DNA of 64,000 nt from IMG/VR virus record IMGVR_UViG_3300007986_000012. One strand, 5' to 3'. Positions 3,246 through 29,993 of the stretch are shown here, piece by piece. The translations under genes were made by a program, and so were the position numbers. Under the pieces are notes generated by a model, which ran no database searches, was not told the origin of the DNA, and saw nothing but the letters and a program-made list of their open reading frames with translations. The number at the start of each line of letters is the position of its first letter. The stretch's first letter is position 1. Source of the DNA: a virus.

Positions 3246-3740
3246 TCAACGCGTACTTGCTTCTGCTATTAAATCCCAGAATTTCTCCGGCTCTTCGTGT
3301 TTGTAGATATATTCACCACGATTTCTAACCCAAAATACTCGATTGCCATGTTTCCTACGATCTATATCAAGGTGTACCATGGGTTGAGGCTGTCTTCTAT
3401 TTACATTAGTATCCAAGTATACCCCAATTCCTTGCCATACAGTATTTTCAACTGCACAAATCCAAAAATCCATAACGGCTACAGAAGGAAAAACATCCAC
3501 CGCTTTTCCGAGAGAGCCATCGCCAATATAATGTCTGCTGTTCTTGGACCCGGTACGCCGTACAAGACCGTCTGGAACTCCACTTGGAAAAACCGACCGC
3601 CCAAATGCATATCTAGTTATATCTAAGTTATACAACACCTCTGCGTTTACGTATTTCAAATCTTCTGGAACTGGCCATTCGCTTGGAGAAAAATTAGATG
3701 TTGGTGTGTTTTTCAAATAATCATACGCATTTTTAAACAT
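3246..3740 (-). CDS. Peptidase M15-family protein, candidate endolysin
   Basis: SRHYIG...KAVDVF and GIGVY...MVHLDI zinc-peptidase motifs. Confidence 0.75.
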   Translation of the reverse strand: MFKNAYDYLKNTPTSNFSPSEWPVPEDLKYVNAEVLYNLDITRYAFGRSVFPSGVPDGLVRRTGSKNSRHYIGDGSLGKAVDVFPSVAVMDFWICAVENTVWQGIGVYLDTNVNRRQPQPMVHLDIDRRKHGNRVFWVRNRGEYIYKHEEPEKFWDLIAEASTR

Positions 3741-3831
3741 ATGTTGGTCTTTATTGTTGGTCTAGTTCGACTTTATTTATGCTAATGGGTCGGAATAATA
3801 AATACAGTAGTCGGAAAATTAAGGAAAAAAA

Positions 3832-4808
3832 ATGGCCTCGGAAAAATATGTATATGTCGTTGAAGAAGGTAAAAGACCCCGAAGAGATGTATTGAGCGCT
3901 GCATTTGCGCCCACTTCTACAACCTTTAGCGTGGGTTCGGGGGGAGACTTCCCTACATTGGGTGCTGCATTGGCACACTTAGATTCATTTGTTTCAACAA
4001 ATTTTCAACAAGTTATTATCAATATATTGTCTGGATATGTTTTAAAGAGAATCTGGTTTTAAAAAATAAAGATTATAAAAATGTAAAAATCACAAGTGAT
4101 GATGACACTGTTCTAGTCTCCAGAGAATATATGCTTTCCCTTGGTGATGATGACTCTGCAGCCTTCGTTAGTGCCACTAACACCATACTACCCCTAATAG
4201 CAACTCATTTTAAGCTAGATGACACCGGGACCCTGTATGCTGGAAACAATAATTTAGGTAACCATCGAGCGGGACTTTCCCTCTTTTCTGCTTCACAGTT
4301 GGTTTTTGAGAACGATTACAACAATGGTGGAAAGGTCTCTGGAATTTCTGATTTTTTGACTAACAACATTTTTTGTGCACAGTCGTCTGTAACTTTAGGC
4401 AACGGAAGTTTTTCGCGAGATACCGGGACCGGTCAGAATTATGAGGTAGATTATACTTTTTCGGGTGGGGCTCTGGGGTGGCTTGACAATATTGGGGCGT
4501 ACTGGGGCTCAAACGTTAACGTGGTAGGGGGCAGTGTCAGTGGCTCTGCTAACGTGAATTTGGACCTCAGCCCCGGTTGTCGAGGGTATATTCAACAGGC
4601 GTCTATAATCAACAGCGAACACGATTGTTTAGCAGTACGTGGCTCAAATTGTGTAATAAATCTTTGTACTGTTCGTAAAGATGGCGCAAATGACAGTGCG
4701 GATGACGTTGTAGTATCCGACGGTGGGGTGGTTTCTATAATCAACAGCAACTGTGGGGTTTCACAAACAGCCAACACCATTACCGCAAATGGTATAATCA
4801 TGAGGTAA
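3832..4808 (+). CDS. Tail-spike/fibre-like beta-helix protein, split over ORFs 3832..4062 and 4131..4808 and joined by a -1 shift at 4041-4047 (fused 325 aa)
   Basis: TFSVGSGGDFPTL motif; G/S/N/V-rich beta repeats; C-terminal QTANTITANGIIMR; -1 frame open from 4047 to the ATG at 4131; TAAATA at 3799. Confidence 0.6.
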
Positions 4809-4829
4809 TGAGAAGTCTAACATTAAACA

Positions 4830-4855
4830 AAAAAGCCGGGACCTCCCGGCTTTTT
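4830..4855. terminator. Bidirectional intrinsic terminator
   Basis: AAAAAGCCGGG-ACCT-CCCGGCTTTTT between convergent genes. Confidence 0.9.
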
Positions 4856-5282
4856 ATAGCTCTTTAATGGCTTCCAGCAATTTAGGATATGCTACTCTTT
4901 CAATCTCTTCTTTGTGAGTCGAATCGACTTCCGAGAAAAGTGCTCCCTGTTTTTCCCCATATGTAAGATGTACAAACAAATCGTATTTCAGATTTTTTAT
5001 CTGGTCTGGCTGTATGACTTTTCCCCAATGATCTCTTTTTCCTTTTATATACTCACCATATAAATTAGTAAAGTAAGCTGTTCCCTCCCACCCCTGCACA
5101 CCATTCAAAAAATATGCGGGGTCTGAAAACAACGAGGGAGTTCTTTTTTCATCCAAATCCACAACAATACTTCCTTCTGCAACGAATTTACGATGAGTTG
5201 GAAGGAACTCATGGTCTGTTTGGTATACAGCAATTCTTTTTGGACCAGAATCAGTTGGGTTCATTATTTCTGTTAGTTTCAA
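4854..5282 (-). CDS. Hypothetical protein, late promoter
   Basis: 142-aa ORF; TATAAATA at 5306-5313 (minus); N-terminus MKLTEI. Confidence 0.75.
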   Translation of the reverse strand: MKLTEIMNPTDSGPKRIAVYQTDHEFLPTHRKFVAEGSIVVDLDEKRTPSLFSDPAYFLNGVQGWEGTAYFTNLYGEYIKGKRDHWGKVIQPDQIKNLKYDLFVHLTYGEKQGALFSEVDSTHKEEIERVAYPKLLEAIKEL

Positions 5283-5354
5283 TTTTTTGTCTCGGATACT
5301 GTTTGTATTTATATATTATTCGGGTAGAATTAATAACAAAGTTATTTAACGATA

Positions 5355-6470
5355 TCATAAACTGAAATTTTTAAAAGCCTCGTTTTCTACTTTTTTGTCT
5401 ACTTCACCAACAAGATACGTTGATATCTCAACTTCCTGTGGGGCGTTTTGTGTTTCTCGGCCAGCTATCCACGATTCTGTCCACGATAGAGGATTGTCTC
5501 TAGGCACCACGTATGGACTACTCAACCCGATTCTTGTCATTCGTTTGTTTGCAATCCATTCTACATAATCTTTCAACAGTTGTGCGTTCAGTCCTAGCAT
5601 AGACCCGTCTTTGAAGAGATAATCGGCCCATGCTTTTTCCTGATCTACAGCACTAATAAACATTTGGACACAATCTTCTTCGGTTTCGCTACGTATTTTT
5701 ATAAAATCTGGGTCATCTTTTTCTAAAGTATTCAGCAAGAATTGTGTGAACCCCAGATGCAAATTTTCGTCCCTGCAAATGAACTTTATTATTTTGGCAT
5801 TCCCTTCCATCTTGTCCTGTTCAGCAAAAGCCCACGAACAAGCAAAGCTCACATAAAACCTGATCCCTTCCAAAATGTTGACGGCCATCAATGCCATCCA
5901 TAGGGCTTTTTTGTGTTCATATTTGCTGACTGGTGCGTCATACCCATTAACATCGACGTAGTTAGTGATAGCTATCAAATTATCATAATGTTTGCTGATG
6001 TCGGAGGCACATTCCAGAATTTCCGGTATGTTGTTTATTTCATCAAACACCATAGACGGGTTCGGCAATACGTTGCGGATAATGTGAGTGTACGATTGAT
6101 TGTGAATACCTTCAACAAAGGACCACACCTCGATGAAAGATTCTATTTCCGGTAATGTTGTTATGGGAAGAAACGCTAGATTCGGTGATCTTCCTTGAAC
6201 AGAGTCTAAGAGAATCTGTCTTTTCAAATTAGACAAAAATATATGTTTCTCGTGATCTGACAGGTCCCTAAAATCTTTGGCGTCTCTTGATATGTTAATT
6301 TCTTCTGGACGCCAAAAGAAACTAAGTTGTTTTTCATACATCTTAGTGGCTTTTGGATATTTAACGTCGTCATAACGAGCTATCGTTACCGAAGTATTTT
6401 GATCATCCAAGAACATTGTACATTTCTTGTGAGACTTTTTGTTGTCTGGGTTATAAACGCTTTTAGTCAT
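5355..6470 (-). CDS. nrdB: Ribonucleotide reductase class Ia beta subunit
   Basis: FFWRPEEI, QILLDSVQGR, EGIHNQSY (Fe ligand and Tyr radical), NILEGIRFYVSF, RDENLH, APQEVE. Confidence 0.97.
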   Translation of the reverse strand: MTKSVYNPDNKKSHKKCTMFLDDQNTSVTIARYDDVKYPKATKMYEKQLSFFWRPEEINISRDAKDFRDLSDHEKHIFLSNLKRQILLDSVQGRSPNLAFLPITTLPEIESFIEVWSFVEGIHNQSYTHIIRNVLPNPSMVFDEINNIPEILECASDISKHYDNLIAITNYVDVNGYDAPVSKYEHKKALWMALMAVNILEGIRFYVSFACSWAFAEQDKMEGNAKIIKFICRDENLHLGFTQFLLNTLEKDDPDFIKIRSETEEDCVQMFISAVDQEKAWADYLFKDGSMLGLNAQLLKDYVEWIANKRMTRIGLSSPYVVPRDNPLSWTESWIAGRETQNAPQEVEISTYLVGEVDKKVENEAFKNFSL

Positions 6471-6492
6471 ATCTTTCCTTAGTTATTATACT

Positions 6493-7032
6493 TTATAATA
6501 TGCATGAAGAACAACCTTCTTCATCGTCAAGTTCCTCGGTCTTGGGCTCTAATACTACTTCGACTTCTTCCTTTTCTTCCCCGGCACCATCATAAGTATT
6601 GTGATAGTATAAGGTCTTGCCACCATATTTGTAAAACTCAAGGAGTTGCTTTAAAAGCTCCTGAAGAGGGACCTTATTGTCCGGATAGTTTTCTGGGTTG
6701 ATGCTGACATTTGCTGAAATAGTTTGGTCAACATACTTTTGTATAATGTTCATTATCCTCAAATAACCATCTGGTGACTTTTGTTCCCATAGAAGATCGT
6801 ACTTGTTCTTCAGGCGATAGATTTCAGGAACCACCTGTTTCATTTTGCCGTCCTTAGAACTTTTCTCGCTGATCAACCCTCTGGGCGGCTCTACGCCGTT
6901 GGTGGCATTAGCTAATTGTGAAGAAGTATTGTGACTTATCGATCCATTTGATAGGGCGTATTGTTCGGTATCCGTAGATATATCCCAAGTGTGTTCTACG
7001 CCCACATTTCGTTTTATGCTTTTAATTTTCAT
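6493..7032 (-). CDS. nrdA: NrdA C-terminal fragment preceded by split-intein C-half
   Basis: 35-aa IntC ending SHN, then TSSQLANATNGVEPPR, KYVDQTIS, GGKTLYY and C-terminal CSSC redox pair. Confidence 0.93.
   Translation of the reverse strand: MKIKSIKRNVGVEHTWDISTDTEQYALSNGSISHNTSSQLANATNGVEPPRGLISEKSSKDGKMKQVVPEIYRLKNKYDLLWEQKSPDGYLRIMNIIQKYVDQTISANVSINPENYPDNKVPLQELLKQLLEFYKYGGKTLYYHNTYDGAGEEKEEVEVVLEPKTEELDDEEGCSSCIL
6928..7032 (-). mobile_element. Split intein 2, C-half (+1 residue Thr)
   Basis: MKIKSIK...TWDIST...YALSNGSISHN|T; SD GAGG upstream. Confidence 0.88.
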
Positions 7033-8017
7033 TGTGTAATTCCTCTATTGTTATTGTACATTTTCCTTGTTTAGACAGATTTTCCTCCCAAGGAATAAAT
7101 TCCAAATTCTTCTTGTCGCCTATAATTTCTGGCGGTATACCTTCTATAAATCCCCTAGATATAGAAAATTTGTGATCTAGATGGTATGCTCCATCCTCCC
7201 CAGCTTTTCCTCTAAGATAAAAATTCTTTAATTCAGATAGGTCATTTTGATTGGTATGCGACCATACTTCTCTTTTATAGGATTCATATTCTGTCAAGGA
7301 TTCATATGGCACCCAAATCCCAGAATCTTCCATGGTTTTCCTCAATTTTTTCATTCTAGCAGAAAATTCTTCGTCGGTTAGCTTTTTCTTAGAATTATGG
7401 CCCCTGACCTCTCGTATTTTTTCTTTTATCTCCACTTCAGTCATTTCTGTAGTTTTTTTCAAATATTCTGCATAAGAGTCTATTCCTTTCTTTTTGTCGT
7501 GTATTTTTCTTATATTCTTTTTCGCGTACTCCAATGATTTTCCGCGCTTAATGTAATACTCTACATGGAGTGGGCTATTTTCTCTTTGATATTCTTTCGC
7601 TTTTTCAATCGAAGTAGATTCATCCAAGCCCCGTTTCATGTAAAATTCCTTACAGCGCGGAGATTGTGCCCTTCCATTTTCTTTGGCCAATTCCCACCCA
7701 CTTCGTAAGGTTTTTTCTGCCCAAGACTCATATTTTTTTAGTCCTTCGACTTTGCCATATCTTTTTACAAAGTTGTCCTTAGATGTTGCTTTAGACCTTT
7801 TAAATTGTTCTATAGTTTTTTCTGCTTCTTCCAAAGAACAATTGTCTCGCTTCATTACATATTTCGGATCATATGGGTTGGCTTTTTTTATCTTCTTCCC
7901 TCTATTCCACGCATTCTTTTCTTTCAACAACCAAATAGTTTTTTCTGCTTCTTCCAAAGAACAATTGTCTCGCTTCATTACATATTTCGGATCATACGGA
8001 TTAAATTTTTTGGTCAT
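7022..8017 (-). CDS. Free-standing HNH homing endonuclease with N-terminal repeats
   Basis: C-terminal YHLDHKFSISRGF...NLEFIPWEENLSK; duplicated NPYDPKYVMKRDNCSLEEAEKTI; lies between nrdA fragments. Confidence 0.8.
   Translation of the reverse strand: MTKKFNPYDPKYVMKRDNCSLEEAEKTIWLLKEKNAWNRGKKIKKANPYDPKYVMKRDNCSLEEAEKTIEQFKRSKATSKDNFVKRYGKVEGLKKYESWAEKTLRSGWELAKENGRAQSPRCKEFYMKRGLDESTSIEKAKEYQRENSPLHVEYYIKRGKSLEYAKKNIRKIHDKKKGIDSYAEYLKKTTEMTEVEIKEKIREVRGHNSKKKLTDEEFSARMKKLRKTMEDSGIWVPYESLTEYESYKREVWSHTNQNDLSELKNFYLRGKAGEDGAYHLDHKFSISRGFIEGIPPEIIGDKKNLEFIPWEENLSKQGKCTITIEELHNEN
7812..7996 (-). repeat. Perfect 62-bp direct repeat (period 123) within the HNH gene
   Basis: 7812-7873 is identical to 7935-7996. 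Confidence 0.92.
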
Positions 8018-8023
8018 GCCAAT

Positions 8024-8035
8024 CCCCCCCCCCCC
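8024..8035 (-). repeat. G12 homopolymer in the 5' UTR of the HNH gene
   Basis: Twelve C on plus strand, ending 6 nt before the ATG at 8017. Confidence 0.9.
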
Positions 8036-8069
8036 GGTCTTCCAAGTTGGCGTTAATGCCGTTACTTTT

Positions 8070-8417
8070 TTATTTAGTATTAACGCTAACTACATTGTCA
8101 TTTTCTCTTAAATCCTTGATCTCGATCCATTGGCTGCTTCCGCCCCTATCAACTAACAATCTATGATTTTCAGTGAACTTGTATGATGATCCGTCTTCAA
8201 ATTCTATTTCAATGATTTCTTTAGGTCCATTGTAATAAAACTCGTGAGCTATAGAGTCAGACAACTCTACGGGTTTCAGGAAAGAAAACCGTTGTCCAAT
8301 CATAAACGGGTTGCTATGAATGTCTTCTATGGAAATGTTTCCGTACTCTCGGATTAGTTTTTCGAGTGTTGTTTTAGAACCGTCTTTCATTAGTATCTCG
8401 TTGTCCAAGCTCTGGCA
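8070..8417 (-). mobile_element. Split intein 2, N-half
   Basis: Starts CQSLDNEILMKDG after LMPSE; block B FTENHRLL; ends at a stop with no HN motif. Confidence 0.88.
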
Positions 8418-9068
8418 TTCGCTAGGCATCAGAGCCATCAACGTAGCATTTCTAATACCATACTGTGCCATCTCGGATCGTAGACCTTCCCAGTCAAAGC
8501 GGGTCTTATGTGGTATGATCTCGTCTATTTCTTTCTTGCGGTTTTCCCAAGGGAACTGCCCTATCCCATATTTTGTTTCTGCCGAAAGTTCACAAGGACC
8601 TTGCTCTTTAGCAAGTTGTACAGAAGCTTTGGTCAAATAGAACGCCATTGCTTCCATGTATTCATCTACTGTCTCGAATGCAGACCCGTCATAACGCATA
8701 TTATTTTTGGCTAAAAAGTACGCCAAGTTTATAATTCCTATACCCAAAGTTCTAAATTCTTTTGTCGAAAGCTCTGCTTGTATGGCAGGAAAATCTTGGT
8801 ACGTTAATAGAGAGTCTAATGCCCTTACTGCTAACTCACATGGTTTTTCAAAATCTTCAGGCTTTTTGATATTTCCCCAATTTATAGCAGAGAGGGTGCA
8901 TAAAGCTATTCTACCATTTTCGTCATTGACGCCCTCAAAAGGCGTTGTGGGCAAAGTTATCTCCGCACAGTTGTGTACTAGTATATTATTCGCATAAAAA
9001 TTTGACGTATCTTTTACTGTAATGTCATAAACGGGTCTGGTTATTTTCTGTTTAGTTATTGTTAACAT
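8070..9068 (-). CDS. nrdA: NrdA middle fragment flanked by IntC1 and IntN2
   Basis: ..VHN|CAEITLP (thiyl Cys), CTLSAINWG, RTLGIGIINLA, IRNATLMALMPSE|CQSLD.. Confidence 0.93.
   Translation of the reverse strand: MLTITKQKITRPVYDITVKDTSNFYANNILVHNCAEITLPTTPFEGVNDENGRIALCTLSAINWGNIKKPEDFEKPCELAVRALDSLLTYQDFPAIQAELSTKEFRTLGIGIINLAYFLAKNNMRYDGSAFETVDEYMEAMAFYLTKASVQLAKEQGPCELSAETKYGIGQFPWENRKKEIDEIIPHKTRFDWEGLRSEMAQYGIRNATLMALMPSECQSLDNEILMKDGSKTTLEKLIREYGNISIEDIHSNPFMIGQRFSFLKPVELSDSIAHEFYYNGPKEIIEIEFEDGSSYKFTENHRLLVDRGGSSQWIEIKDLRENDNVVSVNTK
8970..9068 (-). mobile_element. Split intein 1, C-half (+1 residue Cys)
   Basis: MLTITKQK...VYDITV...NFYANNILVHN|C. Confidence 0.92.
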
Positions 9069-9073
9069 TTGTA

Positions 9074-10003
9074 TTATTTCCTTTGTAGTGTGAATGATCC
9101 GTCCGGGTGGTAAAATCTTTTTTTTCCAAGACTACTTTCTCGTATCTGTTGTTTTTGTTGGGAAGATCGATAATAACGATCATATTCAAACTCTATCCCA
9201 CGATTATTGCATTCTTTACGTAGCGCTTCAATAAATTTTTTCCTAGACCCGTTCCAACGGTGCTTAGAAAAGTTTATTATGTAAATTAAATTTTTTTCTT
9301 CGCAGTACTTCTTGTACTCAGATTTTATAAACCTTCCATCGGAACAAGTCTTTATGTAATCTATAGTCTGTTCAAGGTACTCTTCGTTCTTTATATTGTG
9401 AGCATTAAAGTTTTTTAATCCCCGATTCCTTTTGCTCAAATATTCTTTTTGATCTTTTTTTAAACTTTTTCCTTTAGAATGGTGAACCCATTTTCCGCCC
9501 AGAACATTTTCGTGATTTACATCAACTGAGCCTATCATTTCTCCAGTGATGAAATCCTTGACAGGCATTTTTCCTCTCCTAGCTTCAGAAATTCTTGGGT
9601 GACCGGAATTGTTGGCTTTGATAAATCTAGAAAAAGCTTCTCTTTGGTATTTAAACTTTTTCCTCAGTATTTTGTTAACATGAATATCTTCCAACTTTTT
9701 TCCAAAAAAGCCATTTAGCATTAGATTTACGGCACAAATATCATTATATTTCCCATAAACTTTATAACGCAAGTAGTGTATAAACAAGTGTTCTTCTGGT
9801 AAGAGGGACACGATGTTATCTTCACTGTCCATTCCTCCCTCTGATCTAGGAACTATATGATGTCTTTCAACATATAAATTATCAGAATTGAGCCTCAAAT
9901 CCCTCGGGTTTCTTCGAATTATCCTAGTCTTAACATCAGTGTTAATAAAGTCTATAATGAAATTGTTATAGATTTTCTCGTAATTCATAGTCGGTAATGT
10001 CAT
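9074..10003 (-). CDS. Free-standing HNH homing endonuclease (MobE-like)
   Basis: ERHHIVPRSEGGMDSEDNIVSLLPEEHLFIH motif; inserted between nrdA fragments. Confidence 0.85.
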   Translation of the reverse strand: MTLPTMNYEKIYNNFIIDFINTDVKTRIIRRNPRDLRLNSDNLYVERHHIVPRSEGGMDSEDNIVSLLPEEHLFIHYLRYKVYGKYNDICAVNLMLNGFFGKKLEDIHVNKILRKKFKYQREAFSRFIKANNSGHPRISEARRGKMPVKDFITGEMIGSVDVNHENVLGGKWVHHSKGKSLKKDQKEYLSKRNRGLKNFNAHNIKNEEYLEQTIDYIKTCSDGRFIKSEYKKYCEEKNLIYIINFSKHRWNGSRKKFIEALRKECNNRGIEFEYDRYYRSSQQKQQIRESSLGKKRFYHPDGSFTLQRK

Positions 10004-10019
10004 TTCCGTGTATCTTTAT

Positions 10020-10364
10020 TTAGTGTTTGGATATTGTATTGCCCATAAATATTTTAAGAACATCGTCTTCACGCAAGTTCTTAGCTTCAACATAGCCTCT
10101 GTTCATAGTAAATATTTTATGTTCACCAGTGCAGGTTACGGATTTTCCACTTTTTTCACACGTTATGGTGATAAGTTCTTCACTAATTCCGGTTTGTGCA
10201 AAATCCGTTATTTCACTATATACTTCGGTACCGGTATTCAAATCATATGATTTCACTTTAACGCTTCTATGAGCAACCAGATACTTAGCCAAATCTTCTA
10301 TTATTATAGTTTCAAGGATTTCGTCATCCAGTAAGACATCTATCGTTGTATCCCCAACCACACA
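10020..10364 (-). mobile_element. Split intein 1, N-half
   Basis: CVVGDTTI block A, CTGEHKIFT block B, GYVEAKNLREDD, then stop. Confidence 0.92.
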
Positions 10365-11690
10365 CAAATTGCTCTGTTCTATAGGATGAAGTTTCGATAT
10401 GAAAGACCCTTGTGTGTTACAATGATCGATATTTTGGATGTAGATACGACCCGTCGAGACTCTTTCATCCATTATCGTACCAAACACTTCTAGAGCCGGT
10501 AGACTGTATTTCATTTTTATCTTTCTACTTCTCTCATATTTTTCGTATATTCTTTCAAATTCATCGTTATCTCCGGAATAGAATGCGTCCATCAAGTCTG
10601 GAACCTCGTGGGGAGAAAAGAAAGTTATTTTCCCACCCTCTATCAACCTTTTATACGCCAATCTGTTTAATTGTACTCCGTAGTCCATATGTCTGATTCT
10701 ATTCTCTTCGACCCCTTTATTGTTTTTCAGAACAATAAGATTTTCAAACTCGTAATGAAAGAAAGGCCAATACACAGTCGCAGCACCTCCCCTAACCCCA
10801 CCTTGACTACAACTTTTTAGCGCAGCATGAAAATATTTCAAGAAAGGAATGACCCCAGTGTGTTTGATCTCTCCGTTTCTAATCTCAGAACCAACTGCTC
10901 TGATCCTACCAGCGTTTATGCCAATCCCTGCTTTACGTGAAACGTAATTTACGATAGAAGAAGCTGTTGCGTTTATACTGGAAAGTGAGTCACCAGAATT
11001 AATTAATACACAAGAACTGAACTGTTTGGTAGGTGTTCTTACTCCCGCTAAAATCGGTGTAGGAACAGAAATGTCCCACTTACTCAAGGCATCGTAATAT
11101 TCTTTTACGAACTTCATTCGAGTGTCTTCGGGATAGCCATGGAAAAGAGTTGCTGCAATTAGCATGTATGCCATCTGTGGTGTTTCGTAGTATTCTTTTG
11201 TTACGCGGTTTTGGACAAGATATTTTCCTAAAAGTTGTTTCATTCCTGTGTAAGAAAATTCGAAATCCCGGTCATGTTTGATCATCTTGTCCATCTTGCG
11301 CCACTCTTGATCATCATACCATTCAAGAAGTTCTTTCGTGTAATAGCCGGTTGCGACATTCTTCTCTACCAATTTTTTAATTGGCCACGGGGTAATCATA
11401 CCGTATACTTCTTTCCTGAGATTAAAGTTAATCAATTTGGCTGCAACGTATTGATAATTTGGGGCGTCCTCAGATATTAAATCTGCCGCCGTTTTAGTCA
11501 ATGTAGAATGAATCTCGGTTGCCTTCATTCCATCAAAAAACTGTAACTGGCTTTTAATTGCGATGTCGGATACCGAAACACCGGTTACATCTTCGCAAGC
11601 CCATGTCAATATTTTGTGTATCTTATCTAGGTCTAGGGGTTCTTTTCTTCCGTCTCGCTTTTCTACCAAAATTTCTTTTTTAGCGTTCAT
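10020..11690 (-). CDS. nrdA: NrdA N-terminal fragment (ATP cone) followed by split-intein N-half
   Basis: VEKRDGRKE ATP cone, ETPQ, PTPILAGVRT, QFSSC, SCSQGGVRGG, EQSNL|CVVGDT. Confidence 0.95.
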   Translation of the reverse strand: MNAKKEILVEKRDGRKEPLDLDKIHKILTWACEDVTGVSVSDIAIKSQLQFFDGMKATEIHSTLTKTAADLISEDAPNYQYVAAKLINFNLRKEVYGMITPWPIKKLVEKNVATGYYTKELLEWYDDQEWRKMDKMIKHDRDFEFSYTGMKQLLGKYLVQNRVTKEYYETPQMAYMLIAATLFHGYPEDTRMKFVKEYYDALSKWDISVPTPILAGVRTPTKQFSSCVLINSGDSLSSINATASSIVNYVSRKAGIGINAGRIRAVGSEIRNGEIKHTGVIPFLKYFHAALKSCSQGGVRGGAATVYWPFFHYEFENLIVLKNNKGVEENRIRHMDYGVQLNRLAYKRLIEGGKITFFSPHEVPDLMDAFYSGDNDEFERIYEKYERSRKIKMKYSLPALEVFGTIMDERVSTGRIYIQNIDHCNTQGSFISKLHPIEQSNLCVVGDTTIDVLLDDEILETIIIEDLAKYLVAHRSVKVKSYDLNTGTEVYSEITDFAQTGISEELITITCEKSGKSVTCTGEHKIFTMNRGYVEAKNLREDDVLKIFMGNTISKH

Positions 11691-11729
11691 TCTTTCTCCT
11701 AATTGTTGGGCGCTGGGTGATGATTATTT

Positions 11730-11745
11730 AGACCCGAAGGGGTCT
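11730..11745 (-). terminator. Hairpin upstream of nrdA, directly followed by CTAAATA
   Basis: AGACCC-CTTC-GGGTCT on minus; TAAATA at 11725-11730. Confidence 0.5.
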
Positions 11746-11783
11746 TTCAAGAAATATTCTTTGAGTATCTTATACTTATGTCT

Positions 11784-12368
11784 TTACTTTTGCAAGAGTC
11801 GTATCAACTCGTTGTAGCATGGGTATTTTTCGGAAGACACCGTGTAATAATACTGCATTCCATAAAAGATAATTTCTTTCTTGGATTTTAACGCATCGTT
11901 CAATGACGTATTGTCTGAGGTGTATGCGTATTCGATTGAATCTTCCATCATTTCTAAAGCTTTTCCTTTGTCGACCAAATCTAATCCTAACAATTTGGTA
12001 TAAGAGTATCGATACTCTTCGTGATCATTGATTCTAGGATTGAACAAAAATTTGAACCCGTTTTTCGGGAAGATGTAGTGTGTTTTCATCCCATCTTTTT
12101 CACTATGAGGACCGTTGACGACTACTGAACGCATGTGAATGTTCCGATGCTCCTTTTGCAAAGCATCTCCGATAATGCGAATGAAACCAACTGGTTTTTT
12201 CTTATGGCGTACTTTAACTTTGCGAAAATATTTCCCATGGTCATCGAACGCTTTCAATGCTGGATATACGCTCGTGATAGAAAGAAAATCGGAGCATTCT
12301 TTTTTTATGTTTTCTATTATCTTGCTCATATTGCCAATATAAATAATCTTGTCCAGTCTCAATGACAA
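11784..12368 (-). CDS. Hypothetical protein (start possibly the ATG of MSKIIE)
   Basis: 194-aa ORF, CATAAATA upstream at about 12410-12417. Confidence 0.7.
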   Translation of the reverse strand: MSLRLDKIIYIGNMSKIIENIKKECSDFLSITSVYPALKAFDDHGKYFRKVKVRHKKKPVGFIRIIGDALQKEHRNIHMRSVVVNGPHSEKDGMKTHYIFPKNGFKFLFNPRINDHEEYRYSYTKLLGLDLVDKGKALEMMEDSIEYAYTSDNTSLNDALKSKKEIIFYGMQYYYTVSSEKYPCYNELIRLLQK

Positions 12369-12461
12369 AGTATAAAGACTTGCTTATTCAAAGAGAAGAG
12401 TGTGAGTTATATTTATGCGGCAAATACATAACATGATACTAAAGATAAATACTTTAAAGGC

Positions 12462-14102
12462 TTGAATATATTCATGGCAACTATAAAATATCAATGTGAT
12501 ACCTGCAAGAGGGACATCGAACTTCTAGAAAACTCCAGAGGGTTGAACATGTTCAGCTCGTGTACAATAACCGAAGGTTGTAGGGGTAAAATGTATAAAC
12601 TCTCTAGAAACGCTTACAATTTTCGCGAGGCTTTTCGAGAAGCGGACCCTGCTGGTAATCTTGAAAACTTTGCCCCTAGGAAAATATTTTTCAAGCATTA
12701 CCAAAGCATTCTATCAGACAAATGGATAATTAAACACAACCTCAATACGCAACCGGTCGTCAAGGTTTTTCTGGAATCAGAAGATGGGACACAAATAGTG
12801 CCGGTGGGTTCTAATGTATTCAGCGTTATAAACAAATCTTCAAACGAACTAGAGATTGTTTTTAGTGGATCTTTCACCGGACAGGCTCATTTGATTGCCA
12901 GAAGTATTTCGGAAGACAGTATAGATACAATTCCAGATACAGAAAATCTCACCCAAATTTCTTACAACAACACGTTATCTTTTGCAGTCATATCCAGATA
13001 TAGAACGCCATTTCGAGAAATATATACAAACGGTCCAATACAGTTGGACATTGTTCTGCAAGAACCGAATGAAGAGCCTATTTTTTGTGTCGAAACCTTA
13101 TCTGGGTTAGAAGCTGGCTTGTCGCCTTGGAATGATTTTAGGTCAATTCTTTTCAGAAGAAGGCGAAACTTCAATGTGAAAACCAAAAACATAGCAGATT
13201 TTAGAGTTATAAAAGATCGCTATGAGTCATTACAAGACATTCCACAGTTGACTCGTCTAACAATCAAAGGAATAAATTTATTTCCTGATACGGAAACTTT
13301 TAGTGAAATAAAGTCTAAACAACTTTTGTTATTGTTAGCGAACAGTCCATATGACAAAGCAGATAAGAATTTGGGACAATTGATTGACATTGGCGAAATA
13401 GGACAAAAATCGGAGAATACATCATTTGTGTTTGTGAATGGTGTTTTATATTCTGACCCATCCAACATTGAAGTCGTCTATCCAAAAATAGAAAAAGATG
13501 TTGTAGTGGCTCCGTTGCCGTCCAGCACCCCAACTCCTACAGTGTCTATTACATCGTCAACCGCGCCAACACCTACACCGACACCTACCCCTACAGTGAC
13601 GCCTACAGTGACGCCTACAGTAACGCCTACAGTGACGCCTACAGTGACGCCTACACCTTCGGGCGTGTCTTTTTGTTGGGTAGGAGATACTACGGATTGG
13701 TCTGTTTTTGGGTCTGAGTCGAACCCGTATTTTGACGGAACCTGTTTTGTTTATGGTGAATTCGGTTCGTCAGTTTCAACTAACCCGATAGAATATTCCG
13801 GTTCGGGGGTTTCTTTGTCTCACGGTATAAGATTCGAACTGTTGTTGTCCGGACCGACACCCAATATTGACGTAGATATACAAATTAATGCTAATAGTCT
13901 AATAGGACCAACTGTTGTTGACACAGTTGAACTAACAAACGGTGTTCCATTTGTATATGAATTAGATGAAACTTCTGGCCTGTTCGATGGTGTTTCTTCA
14001 TTAGACCCCGCGTCTATATCAGTAAGCTACACGAGAATAGATAATTATGATGTCGTAACCATTTGTAATATTGAAGCTAGAAGCCAAGATTGTGCCCCTT
14101 AA
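12462..14102 (+). CDS. Probable virion structural protein with N-terminal Cys motif, Pro/Thr linker and C-terminal beta domain (likely start ATG 12474)
   Basis: CDTC..C....C N-terminus, WIIKHNL..QP.V.VF motif, (PTVT)5 linker, late promoter TAAATA at 12446. Confidence 0.7.
   Translation: MNIFMATIKYQCDTCKRDIELLENSRGLNMFSSCTITEGCRGKMYKLSRNAYNFREAFREADPAGNLENFAPRKIFFKHYQSILSDKWIIKHNLNTQPVVKVFLESEDGTQIVPVGSNVFSVINKSSNELEIVFSGSFTGQAHLIARSISEDSIDTIPDTENLTQISYNNTLSFAVISRYRTPFREIYTNGPIQLDIVLQEPNEEPIFCVETLSGLEAGLSPWNDFRSILFRRRRNFNVKTKNIADFRVIKDRYESLQDIPQLTRLTIKGINLFPDTETFSEIKSKQLLLLLANSPYDKADKNLGQLIDIGEIGQKSENTSFVFVNGVLYSDPSNIEVVYPKIEKDVVVAPLPSSTPTPTVSITSSTAPTPTPTPTPTVTPTVTPTVTPTVTPTVTPTPSGVSFCWVGDTTDWSVFGSESNPYFDGTCFVYGEFGSSVSTNPIEYSGSGVSLSHGIRFELLLSGPTPNIDVDIQINANSLIGPTVVDTVELTNGVPFVYELDETSGLFDGVSSLDPASISVSYTRIDNYDVVTICNIEARSQDCAP
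13590..13655 (+). repeat. 12-nt tandem repeat encoding (PTVT)5
   Basis: CCTACAGTGACG x5 (one variant), within a longer S/T/P-rich tract. Confidence 0.95.
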
Positions 14103-26833: not shown

Positions 26834-26862
26834 AGTATAATACCTTGTGATCTAAAATTCAA
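26834..26862 (-). promoter_or_regulatory. sigma70-type promoter
   Basis: TTGAAT-N17-TATACT upstream of ATG 26808. Confidence 0.65.
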
Positions 26863-27802
26863 TGAGTTCGTCCGCTAGTGTGTTTCTGCTGTTCGGCACA
26901 GCTTCGCCAATGGCATCTAATATGTTTTTAATGGGCTGGTCTACCAGAGATTTTATCTGGCGGTTTCTGTCAACATATGGAAGGAAATCTGTTAACCAAT
27001 CTGGTCTAATTGTCATATCCGTTGGTAGTGCTATAGCATTAAACATTCCAAAGTTTTTCTTCTTGAGAAAATAAAACTTTTTAACTTTATCTCCGGATCG
27101 GATAGGATACGATTCATGGTCCTCATAAGTTTTTAGGCACTCATTGTAAAGAATGGAAGCCCGGACCATGTGATACACTTTCTTCGGATCAGTTTTGAAT
27201 ACCTGCGTACCCTCTTCGACATCGTTGACGCCGGAAGGAACCCCTATGTCAAAAATGTCCCCATCCCGCAAAGAATTCTTGTAGTCTACAATGTCCCTTT
27301 TGATAACAATCCAACTTTCTCCCTTAAGAAATCTTTCGAAAAAATCCGTTAGTTTAATTCTAATGGCTTTGGGAATATTTGTCTTCTTGATCTGAAGACC
27401 CATGACTTTCATTTTGTCAACCTCTTTACCATCTAATTCAACCAAGTGTAAAATGTAATGTTTCTTTTTGACAAATATTCCCCGGTCAGAAACAATTTCT
27501 TTTTCTGCGACGATGTAGTTCTCTCTACCACCAGTGCAGTTAAAAGCCTTTTTCATGTATTGAGGATAACTCTTATTGACCTTCTTACAAATTGCATCAG
27601 ATACAGCAGATACCTCTTCCGCCGTGATGTCCTCTTCGCCTAAACCGGAATAGAAATAAACGCTATTGTGGACTAAAATGTCATTTGCCATAAAATATGG
27701 AAAGGCCGCATCCTTCATGACAACATCATAAACATATTGTTCTTCCGGATTATCAATTTTTGTTATATTTTTAATTTTTGATCTTATAATCTTCTTATCC
27801 AA
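26852..27802 (-). CDS. DNA polymerase B C-terminal fragment preceded by split-intein C-half (likely TTG start 27802; track start 27829)
   Basis: ..ILVHN|SVYF, KKKHY, KVMGLQIKK; SD AAGGAG 8 nt before the TTG. Confidence 0.9.
   Translation of the reverse strand: MDKKIIRSKIKNITKIDNPEEQYVYDVVMKDAAFPYFMANDILVHNSVYFYSGLGEEDITAEEVSAVSDAICKKVNKSYPQYMKKAFNCTGGRENYIVAEKEIVSDRGIFVKKKHYILHLVELDGKEVDKMKVMGLQIKKTNIPKAIRIKLTDFFERFLKGESWIVIKRDIVDYKNSLRDGDIFDIGVPSGVNDVEEGTQVFKTDPKKVYHMVRASILYNECLKTYEDHESYPIRSGDKVKKFYFLKKKNFGMFNAIALPTDMTIRPDWLTDFLPYVDRNRQIKSLVDQPIKNILDAIGEAVPNSRNTLADELIEF
27665..27802 (-). mobile_element. Split intein 3, C-half (+1 Ser)
   Basis: KIKNITKI...YVYDVVM....YFMANDILVHN|S. Confidence 0.9.
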
Positions 27803-27803
27803 T

Positions 27804-28190
27804 CTACAGTCTCCTTTTATCAGTATCACGGTTGATAGTTATAAAAACATCATCATTTTTCAAGTCGTCGGGGGCTATTTCAATGAATTGACCGTCCCGC
27901 TCTACTACCAATGAGTGGTCTTCTGTCACTGTGACAATTTTTCCACATTCCAACTCAATGCGAAATAGTGGTTTACTTATTTTGTGTCTGTATATCGTAA
28001 GAATTTCTTTATCAATTATTCTCTTAGTTTCTGGGTTGTAACATGGTGAATAATTGTTGTCTCCGTGCATCTTTATGATTTCTTTTTTGCCCTCCATATA
28101 TGTACCGTATTTTGTCGAATGTTCTTTAAACCATTCTCCTACATTCTTAAATTCCCCATTGATTTCAATTACTGAAGATTCGACCACACT
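27804..28190 (-). mobile_element. Split intein 3, N-half (Ser1)
   Basis: SVVESSVI.. after YGDTD; block B VTEDHSLVV; EIAPDDLKNDD, then stop. Confidence 0.88.
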
Positions 28191-29993
28191 ATCAGTATCA
28201 CCATAAAGTATTGATTTTGAAGGATATTTGTACTCTCCGTCTAAAATAAGAGCTATTTTTTTAGCCATATGCAATAGGATGTTCTTACCGGTCTTGGTTG
28301 TGGATTCTGCGAGTCTAACATCGAAAAATCTGAAATATTTGTTTCCGAATACCCCATAGAGAGAATTAAGCTGAATCTTTTTCAAGTATTGTATATTGTC
28401 GTAATACTCGGCTTCCTTCTTATATCGTTCTTCGTTGGTTTCTTGATGTTTCGCATAAGCGTCAACCTTTTTCTTTTGATATTCGATTCGCTCGTCGAAC
28501 CACTTCGTCAAGATACAGGGTATGACCCCGTCTTTAGCCTGATCAAAAATTGTCCCATGGCCACTTATTGCCCAGTTACGCTTCTCTAGAGCATTTCTCC
28601 ATTCTGAGGCAGTCATGGTCTCATCATTTCCATCTTCGTAGAGCAGGGTAAGATGTATATCTCCCGATTTTTCTTGAATGTATTCAAACGCTTTTTCGTT
28701 TTCGAAGAATTGACCTATTATTGTTTCGGGTGAAATGTTGATGGCCCTCATACTAGATGGATATAGAGATTTAATGTCTACAGATGCAATCCATTCGTGT
28801 AGACCTATTTGTGGATCTAATACGAAAGCACCTTCAAACTTTGTACCATCATCAAATACATCATAAGGAGCATCCGGCAACACAAGCCTTTTGTCCTGCT
28901 CGTGTTTGCAGAAATTTAGAATAGCTGTGTCGGACGTACTAGTTGTTCCCAAAACCGCTGGAATATTATTGGTTGTCATATGAGAAAAGTTCAAAGCTAG
29001 GTCCATATACTTGAACTTCAAGTCAAGATGTTTCAAAATGTCTGTATCTCGAATGTTGTATCGTAAAAACTCGTCAAAATCTTCGTGATACAATCTATAC
29101 AGAGATTTGTCGTAACTCAACTTCTGAAACCCATCTAGAGATTCTTCAGCAACGGATTCCAAAGAATAAGAATCACGTTCGCTCGCATCAAATTTCTTAA
29201 CCATCTCCATGAAGTCTATCCAAATTCTCCCATGAGGTTTAACCACCATTTCCATTGTGCCGAATTTCTCGCGTTCGTCCACACGAACATCCAAATCGGA
29301 CTCTGGAAAGTTCATCAACCTCGTATATTTTTTACCCAAGACTTTCATGGTTCTACTATAGATGTATGGGTCATCGAACCAGTCACTGTTCCAACCGCTA
29401 ACGACATCACTGTCTTCTATCTCTTGATAAAAACGCGTCAACAATTCTTTTTCGTTAGATAGTAATTCAATCTTGGAATGATCAAATAAGTCTCTAGGAA
29501 GTTCGTCTAGTTGGACCTTAGACCATTCGCCCGTCTTCGGTCTTAATGCAAGGACGATAGATTCGTCAGTGTGTTTATGGTATAGAGCGATAGAACTTAT
29601 TCTAGCATACGGGTTGTCGGGTCTAGAATGACCCCTCTCTGGGTCGTAATCAACCTCAATGTCATAGAAAGTTACATGAAGATCCCCGTCAAGGGGACTA
29701 TTGTAATAATTGTCACTCAAAACTTTGAGTTCGGGAGAAATATCAGATTCGTATATCTTTATTTCCGCTTCTCTCAATCTCTTCCTGCCGCCATAGAAAT
29801 CATAATGGCTCGTAAACTCTATCTTTTCTAGTTTTTTTCCTGTAACGGAATAACATTCTTGGTCAGAATCTTCGTTCTCTACAAAAAATTCATATGGGGC
29901 ATCGTAATATACAGCGACCCTCTTACCGTCTGGGCCTCTTTCCCAAACAATAACGTTTTTTCGGTCTTCTGTTAGTTGCGTAGAAAGATACAT
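27804..29993 (-). CDS. DNA polymerase B N-terminal fragment (exonuclease plus palm) followed by split-intein N-half
   Basis: FYDIEVD, GWNSDWFD, YNIRD exo motifs; SVDIKSLYPS, KIQLNSLYG, YGDTD|SV. Confidence 0.95.
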   Translation of the reverse strand: MYLSTQLTEDRKNVIVWERGPDGKRVAVYYDAPYEFFVENEDSDQECYSVTGKKLEKIEFTSHYDFYGGRKRLREAEIKIYESDISPELKVLSDNYYNSPLDGDLHVTFYDIEVDYDPERGHSRPDNPYARISSIALYHKHTDESIVLALRPKTGEWSKVQLDELPRDLFDHSKIELLSNEKELLTRFYQEIEDSDVVSGWNSDWFDDPYIYSRTMKVLGKKYTRLMNFPESDLDVRVDEREKFGTMEMVVKPHGRIWIDFMEMVKKFDASERDSYSLESVAEESLDGFQKLSYDKSLYRLYHEDFDEFLRYNIRDTDILKHLDLKFKYMDLALNFSHMTTNNIPAVLGTTSTSDTAILNFCKHEQDKRLVLPDAPYDVFDDGTKFEGAFVLDPQIGLHEWIASVDIKSLYPSSMRAINISPETIIGQFFENEKAFEYIQEKSGDIHLTLLYEDGNDETMTASEWRNALEKRNWAISGHGTIFDQAKDGVIPCILTKWFDERIEYQKKKVDAYAKHQETNEERYKKEAEYYDNIQYLKKIQLNSLYGVFGNKYFRFFDVRLAESTTKTGKNILLHMAKKIALILDGEYKYPSKSILYGDTDSVVESSVIEINGEFKNVGEWFKEHSTKYGTYMEGKKEIIKMHGDNNYSPCYNPETKRIIDKEILTIYRHKISKPLFRIELECGKIVTVTEDHSLVVERDGQFIEIAPDDLKNDDVFITINRDTDKRRL

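Follow-up and report, generated by a model that had tools for sequence, protein, structure and literature searches.

Two split-intein cassettes divide a phage nrdA into three pieces predicted to be joined by tandem trans-splicing

How can a phage make a working ribonucleotide reductase (RNR) when the gene for the large subunit lies in three pieces with endonuclease genes between them? The question is raised by a large, uncultured phage, IMG/VR record IMGVR_UViG_3300007986_000012, of which we analysed a stretch of 64,000 nucleotides (nt), hereafter the window, on which all coordinates are counted. The ORF list places at 6493-11690, on the minus strand, five collinear and tightly packed open reading frames (ORFs), with nrdB next downstream. 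Our answer, to which we give a probability of about 0.8, is that this locus is a doubly fractured class Ia nrdA bearing two independent cassettes, each made of the N-terminal half of a split intein (IntN), a homing endonuclease gene (HEG) and the C-terminal half (IntC), and that its three products would be joined by tandem trans-splicing into a NrdA of 770 amino acids (aa). A first-pass annotation of this DNA had proposed the layout of three NrdA pieces, two split inteins and interposed endonuclease genes, and every prediction that it made at the sequence level about this layout was borne out by the ORFs, the Pfam matches and the junctions. The features are as follows.

10020-11690, minus strand: ORF1, NrdA part 1 and IntN1, 556 aa; Pfam ATP-cone, RNR all-alpha, RNR barrel (profile 1-212) and a C-terminal Intein_splicing match
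9074-10003, minus strand: ORF2, HEG1, 309 aa; Pfam HNH
8070-9068, minus strand: ORF3, IntC1, NrdA part 2 and IntN2, 332 aa; Pfam RNR barrel (profile 206-394), with Intein_splicing at either end
7022-8017, minus strand: ORF4, HEG2, 331 aa; no significant Pfam match
6493-7032, minus strand: ORF5, IntC2 and NrdA part 3, 179 aa; Pfam RNR barrel (profile 390-523)
5355-6470, minus strand: nrdB (small subunit), Pfam PF00268 (E 8e-56), directly downstream of ORF5 in the same orientation
10365-11690, minus strand: NrdA extein 1, 442 aa; ATP-cone, all-alpha domain and first part of the barrel, C-terminal end ..QSNL
10023-10364, minus strand: IntN1, 114 aa; Cys1, block B TGEH, net charge -8, stop codon at 10020-10022
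8970-9068, minus strand: IntC1, 33 aa; ..VYDITV..ILVHN, net charge +2, Pfam Intein_splicing (profile 126-155)
8418-8969, minus strand: NrdA extein 2, 184 aa; N-terminal CAEI (E. coli C439 and E441), the C462 equivalent inside, C-terminal end ..LMPSE
8073-8417, minus strand: IntN2, 115 aa; Cys1, block B TENH, net charge -8, Pfam Intein_splicing, stop codon at 8070-8072
6928-7032, minus strand: IntC2, 35 aa; ..HTWDIST..GSISHN, net charge 0
6496-6927, minus strand: NrdA extein 3, 144 aa; N-terminal TSSQ (E. coli T624), the YY pair, C-terminal CxxC, stop codon at 6493-6495
8024-8035, minus strand: G12 homopolymer (C12 on the plus strand), 6 nt upstream of the HEG2 start codon

Placed on E. coli NrdA, the three exteins form an exact tiling. 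In phmmer searches against the PDB, extein 1 corresponds to residues 3-438 (E 3e-173), extein 2 to 439-623 (E 1e-51) and extein 3 to 624-745 (E 5e-42), and neither junction (438|439 or 623|624) has lost or doubled a single residue relative to the E. coli protein. The junctions read ..QSNL|CVVGDT.. and ..ILVHN|CAEITLP.. for the first intein and ..LMPSE|CQSLDN.. and ..SISHN|TSSQLAN.. for the second, and the rejoined exteins give the E. coli-like QSNLC and LMPSETSSQ that the first-pass annotation had foreseen. Because the tiling is exact, intein 1 has as its +1 residue the Cys that corresponds to E. coli C439, the thiyl-radical residue of NrdA (PMC2677866), an identity also claimed beforehand. 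Without the intein halves the exteins add up to 442 + 184 + 144 = 770 aa, a correction to the spliced length of ~765 aa predicted earlier. The rebuilt protein has the features of a class Ia NrdA, namely the ATP-cone, the 10-stranded barrel, the catalytic Cys, Asn and Glu, the Tyr-Tyr pair and the C-terminal Cys pair; all catalytic residues can be read from the alignments and the translation (the FSSC Cys, the N of SNL, the E of CAE, the LCTLSA Cys, LYYHN and the C-terminal CSSC(IL)), and exteins and intein halves are free of frameshifts and internal stops. At both breaks the order and orientation of the parts are kept, the N part runs in frame into IntN and a stop codon, a separate endonuclease gene on the same strand lies between the halves (HNH-like in the case of HEG2), IntC is continued in frame by the C part, and the joined exteins restore the host sequence, which is the anatomy of a fractured gene.

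Both inteins have the complete set of class 1 residues: Cys1, TGEH, the block F Asp (VYDITV), VHN and a +1 Cys in intein 1, and Cys1, TENH, the block F Asp (TWDIST), SHN and a +1 Thr in intein 2. Both are divided at the canonical position, with an IntN of 114 or 115 aa and an IntC of 33 or 35 aa. IntN1 matches the naturally split NrdJ-1 intein (8ubs, E 3.7e-6), and IntN2 matches the Pho RadA and DnaE inteins weakly. Among 55 homologues of IntN2, Cys1 and the block B His are present in all (55/55) and the block B Thr in 54/55; IntN2 lengths cluster at 108-119 aa, and the protein ends 108-129 residues past Cys1 in 52 of the 55 clusters, so that the split is a conserved state and not an accident. 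The start and sequence of IntC1 are conserved across 23 aligned middle pieces, and IntC2 is 69-83% identical to its counterparts in L003, L017 and L085. Put together, IntN2 and IntC2 (150 aa) align end to end with the unsplit site-2 mini-intein of Campylobacter phage CP220 (147 aa; 56/141 identical), a homology that shows site 2 to be occupied in both unsplit and split forms.

Cassette 1 sits at L438|C439, just ahead of the thiyl-radical Cys, and cassette 2 at E623|T624. We propose that the three NrdA pieces are translated separately. IntN1 would then pair with IntC1 and IntN2 with IntC2, the N halves being acidic, IntC1 basic and the two pairs dissimilar in sequence, and two class 1 protein trans-splicing reactions would ligate the exteins into the 770-aa NrdA, which would work with NrdB. 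The endonucleases would have no role in the assembly of the enzyme; they may spread the cassettes into intein-free nrdA alleles during co-infection, by homing. That the inteins splice, and that they do so without cross-reaction between the pairs, is what we infer from their sequences, and the targets of the endonucleases are inferred likewise.

Is this arrangement confined to the window? The middle piece (IntC1-extein 2-IntN2) was searched against 5.8 billion proteins, which gave 1372 matches, and the best 120 clusters were classified. Among these best 120, 28 are middle pieces built like that of the window, 51 consist of IntC1 and an unbroken C-terminal part, that is, a single fracture as in Dassa 2009, and 27 have IntN2 behind an acidic non-intein N-terminus that begins shortly before the C462 equivalent and agrees in position and charge with Aeh1 NrdA-b as described in PMC3045599. 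Complete three-piece loci were verified outside the window in Klebsiella phage KP13-7 and in the IMG/VR contig L085, whose gene order is td, piece 1, a GIY-YIG gene, piece 2, a HEG2 homologue, piece 3 and nrdB; the search for other tripartite nrdA genes, which the first-pass annotation had suggested, was rewarded by these two loci and, at the level of the middle piece, by the 28 clusters. KP13-7 (OP617745.1, Alcyoneusvirus; L002, 6004-11534) shares both split inteins and their sites with the window; a GIY-YIG gene occupies site 1, intein 2 encloses a HEG2 homologue (28% identical), and the KP13-7 exteins are ~55-60% identical to those of the window. Its nrdA has an additional break at SCSQG which holds a 128-aa HNH ORF and is possibly an intron, and in GenBank the genes are labelled nrdA_1, five hypothetical proteins and nrdA_2. 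In GenBank, the match spans at least 80% of the middle piece in 32 phage records, most of them from Campylobacter phages. The ORFs of two were examined: CP220 (FN667788) has nrdA as a single CDS with the unsplit site-2 intein and no site-1 intein, and in vB_CcoM-IBB_35 (HM246724) ORFs stand between the halves of a split site-1 intein, while the site-2 intein is unsplit. A megablast search with the region found no match among 50,697 phage records.

The intein halves could also serve as a mere clasp, docking the three pieces into an enzyme that is active unspliced, as NrdA-a and NrdA-b of Aeh1 are. The split Aeh1 NrdA is fully active without splicing (PMC3045599), and the many relatives that join an Aeh1-like acidic non-intein tail with IntN2 (the 27 clusters above; L089) show that this gene family does have breaks without splicing. 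In the window, however, all splicing residues are intact and conserved at both sites, site 1 divides the catalytic loop between N437 and C439, unlike the Aeh1 break, which comes after C439 (PMC3045599), and an unspliced HINT domain of ~147 aa at site 1 would probably block the active site. We consider assembly by docking unlikely.

A more radical doubt concerns the pieces themselves, which might be two unsplit, endonuclease-bearing inteins broken by errors of sequencing or assembly, or might be parted by gaps that are removed from the RNA as introns. The error-prone G12 homopolymer just upstream of HEG2 and the SCSQG break of KP13-7, with its HNH ORF and its possible intron, lend this some colour. 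But the five ORFs are separate genes, neither a single interrupted frame nor an intron-split one, because they occupy different reading frames and each has its own start. Moreover, 52 of 55 independent clusters agree in the position of the stop after IntN2, and the layout is found again in independent assemblies (KP13-7, L085). Rfam cmscan over 5300-12500, on both strands, gave no intron family at E ≤1, on which ground a group I or group II intron was rejected. An artefact of either kind is, in our judgement, improbable in the extreme. The pieces that carry exteins are preceded by Shine-Dalgarno-like sequences, AGGAG in ORF1 (6 nt before the ATG), AAGGA in ORF3 and AGAGGA in ORF5 (8 nt before the ATG); HEG1 starts 16 nt past the stop of IntN1, and the 3' end of HEG2 overlaps the start of IntC2 by 11 nt. 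The G12 run is the sole run of G or C of at least 9 nt in the window, and L003 and L017 have no G run at the matching position; it could serve as a strong ribosome-binding site rich in G or as a switch for endonuclease expression that is prone to slippage, or be a weak point of the assembly. A promoter scan gave 28 sites against 22.4 ± 4.6 in shuffled sequence and a terminator scan 4 against 4.4, neither being an excess, and upstream of the endonuclease genes there is no convincing hairpin of the kind described in Dassa 2009, just a 3-bp stem near 8046-8057.

What are the genes between the intein halves? HEG1 passes the Pfam HNH model PF01844 narrowly (22.0 bits against a cut-off of 21.4) and matches PHROG 655, 'homing endonuclease', with E 3e-28; by homology it encodes an HNH homing endonuclease, and as a free-standing gene it separates IntN1 from IntC1. 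HEG2 matches only PHROG 5104, of unknown function in PHROG, and has no match in Pfam or PDB sequence searches. Its product has a helical N-terminal region and an HNH-like C-terminal domain, and D281, H282, N304, N313 and K316 are invariant across 74 sequences. Full-length homologues form ~45 database clusters, and many more proteins share only the C-terminal ~90 residues, fused to various helix-turn-helix domains, a modular build that is typical of homing endonucleases. In the AlphaFold2 model of HEG2 (predicted local distance difference test, pLDDT, 93), every structural match of residues ~236-331 is an HNH nuclease and all are weak (Z 3.1-4.5; Foldseek E ~2): the Gme HNH nicking enzyme 4h9d (Z 4.5), VcaM4I, T5 SciA, the GVE2 HNH enzyme, Cas9 HNH domains and I-HmuI; Foldseek of the model against the PDB gave nothing at E ≤0.001. 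The motif and these folds suggest that HEG2 is an HNH-like endonuclease, short of proof, so that the HNH label which the first-pass annotation gave to both genes stands for HEG1, by its Pfam match, and has to be softened to HNH-like for HEG2. Towards the N-terminus of HEG2 (~7810-8005, minus strand) a stretch of ~23 aa, NPYDPKYVMKRDNCSLEEAEKTI, is present twice in tandem and may be a duplicated DNA-binding module. GC content is 0.33-0.35 over the endonuclease genes against ~0.40 in the exteins, which fits a foreign origin of the former.

Do the cassettes move? In the closest IMG/VR relatives of the window, L004-L006, whose extein 1 is 71-81% identical, nrdA is uninterrupted; L010-L016 have the site-1 cassette only, with a HEG1 homologue, and L003 and L017 the site-2 cassette only. 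Within Alcyoneusvirus, KP13-7 has both cassettes and phiKp_21 that of site 2; in RaK2, K64-1 and Muenster the tblastn match ends at the end of extein 1, which suggests that they have no IntN1. The IMG/VR contigs L003 and L017 are particularly telling. Their exteins are 76-85% identical in protein and ~70-80% in DNA, with a synonymous divergence (dS) of 1.2-2.3, and from 12 nt before IntN2 to ~30 nt after IntC2 (~5544-7058) they differ at 3 of ~1515 nt (~99.8% identity). Recent homing of the IntN2-HEG2-IntC2 unit as a whole, accompanied by short co-conversion tracts, is expected to leave just such a footprint. The presence and absence of cassettes among relatives, together with a near-identical cassette in diverged hosts, shows each unit of IntN, endonuclease gene and IntC apparently behaving as an independent mobile element.

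Another possibility is that selfish elements are destroying the gene and that no working enzyme is made. Comparable interrupted nrdA genes, those of CPt10 and IBB_35, were read as degenerating in the survey of multiply interrupted phage RNR genes by Dwivedi 2013 (PMC3653736). Against decay in the window speak the open frames of all exteins and intein halves, the retention of every catalytic residue, and the good ribosome-binding sites of the extein pieces. In the relatives L003 and L017 the ratio of nonsynonymous to synonymous divergence (dN/dS) of the exteins is about 0.08-0.10, and these low values indicate that exteins carrying the site-2 cassette are still under strong purifying selection. 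A decaying nrdA is very improbable.

How does the doubly fractured nrdA relate to the systems already described? Dassa 2009 reported 26 fractured loci, among them NrdA-1 to NrdA-7, the NrdA ones all being at site 1 with one break per gene, and their endonucleases are GIY-YIG or Vsr-like (PMC2677866). The window shares with these NrdA loci the gene and site 1, directly N-terminal to the thiyl-radical Cys, and with the Dassa 2009 loci in general the order of extein-IntN, free-standing endonuclease gene and IntC-extein on one strand; NrdA-2 also has an acidic IntN and a basic IntC, and the overlap of 11 nt between endonuclease gene and IntC at site 2 of the window falls within the 6-69 bp of their loci. 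It differs in having two fractures and three polypeptides, of which the middle one begins with IntC and ends with IntN, in its site 2 (E623|T624), which is absent from their split-intein sites, and in its endonucleases, an HNH and an HNH-like family without a Pfam model. KP13-7, with both fractures, differs from the window in its GIY-YIG gene in place of HNH at site 1 and in the one additional interruption at SCSQG.

In Aeromonas phage Aeh1 it is mobE that splits nrdA, and no splicing takes place (Crona 2011, PMC3045599). As in the window, a mobile HNH gene cuts nrdA near the active site and the pieces (nrdA-a, mobE, nrdA-b) stand in order beside nrdB; unlike the window, Aeh1 has no intein, needs charged tails for activity, and is broken after the C439 equivalent. 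A non-splicing split of this type was tried as a candidate for the window and ruled out by the complete intein halves at both breaks. Campylobacter phages CP220 and IBB_35 (PMC3653736) have inteins at the same two sites, but at site 2 theirs is an unsplit, cis-splicing mini-intein without an endonuclease gene, and so at most two polypeptides are made. A parallel in design is offered by protein engineering, where several fragments have been ligated in one pot by mutually orthogonal split inteins, the middle fragments likewise being preceded by IntC and followed by IntN (PMC7090010); those systems were designed, whereas the arrangement described here is natural and produced by mobile elements.

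The first-pass annotation had cited the single fractures (PMC2677866) and the intein-free Aeh1/mobE split (PMC3045599) as the known cases, correctly, and had called a three-piece NrdA unusual. This holds for the literature, in which no paper on a double fracture was found, and has to be qualified for public sequence data, where the layout recurs (KP13-7, L085, 28 clusters). Our literature search, made mostly without subscription journals and hence weak evidence of absence, found no natural gene cut by two split inteins, and multi-piece trans-splicing solely in engineered systems (PMC7090010). The double fracture is recurrent in sequence databases and apparently undescribed in print.

Several points weigh against tandem trans-splicing as we propose it. 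IntN1 scores 31.5 bits with Pfam Intein_splicing, under the curated cut-off of 35.8, and IntC2 by itself is too short for a Pfam score. Thr at the +1 position is a rarer nucleophile than Cys or Ser. The two intein pairs are presumably orthogonal, the one ground for this here being their divergence (31/100 identical in the N halves, 7/33 in the C halves), and since IntC1 and IntN2 share the middle chain, any cross-reaction would yield dead-end products. The reading covers the 64-kb window, so this nrdA may not be the sole RNR of the phage. We found no report of experimental splicing for these inteins or for any split relative at site 2, and NrdA-2 of Dassa 2009 was still termed uncharacterised in 2020 (PMC7090010).

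A further split gene lies in the same window. The family B DNA polymerase (PolB) at 26852-29993, minus strand, has an N piece that ends ..YGDTD|S and continues into a 128-aa IntN with Ser1, block B TEDH and a Pfam Intein_splicing score of 36.3 bits; the next ORF carries ..ILVHN|SVYF, there is no endonuclease gene between the halves, and the PolB IntC is identical to IntC1 at 14/33 positions.

Taken as one joint claim, we lean slightly towards the view that the window holds a natural case of tandem trans-splicing by two orthogonal split inteins, with a third pair in the DNA polymerase, and that site 2 represents an undescribed Cys1/Thr+1 family of split inteins, associated with a new HNH-like endonuclease family and apparently homing between phages now.

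What would such genes mean in practice? With them the concept of the fractured gene, so far one of a single break, takes in an essential gene that is broken several times, and they offer protein engineers a natural source of split-intein pairs presumably selected to coexist without cross-reacting, two here and three with PolB. They also bear on annotation: genes of this kind are labelled 'hypothetical', 'nrdA_1/nrdA_2' or 'pseudogene', as in KP13-7 and the Campylobacter phages, and phage nucleotide metabolism is understated as a result.

Other arrangements of nrdA were seen along the way. L089 (~3644-8344) has another kind of three-piece nrdA, with an Aeh1-like non-intein break near site 1, a gap of ~1 kb, and at site 2 a split intein with HEG2; its acidic N-terminal tail begins shortly before the C462 equivalent, and proteins of this type, the 27 of the best 120 clusters, include P0017, P0019, P0027, P0030 and P0032-P0036. 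In the IMG/VR contigs L087 (101 kb) and L088 (251 kb), extein 1 is interrupted, IntN1 and IntC1 are ~70 nt apart with no endonuclease gene between them, there is an extra gap ahead of extein 2, and site 2 holds only the nuclease-domain part of HEG2. Finally, Pseudoalteromonas phage PH357 (L001, 5776-9264) encodes an unbroken NrdA of 1162 aa with a glutaredoxin-like N-terminal extension and, at site 1, a large intein which apparently ends in Gln instead of Asn (..GILTGQ|CLEI).

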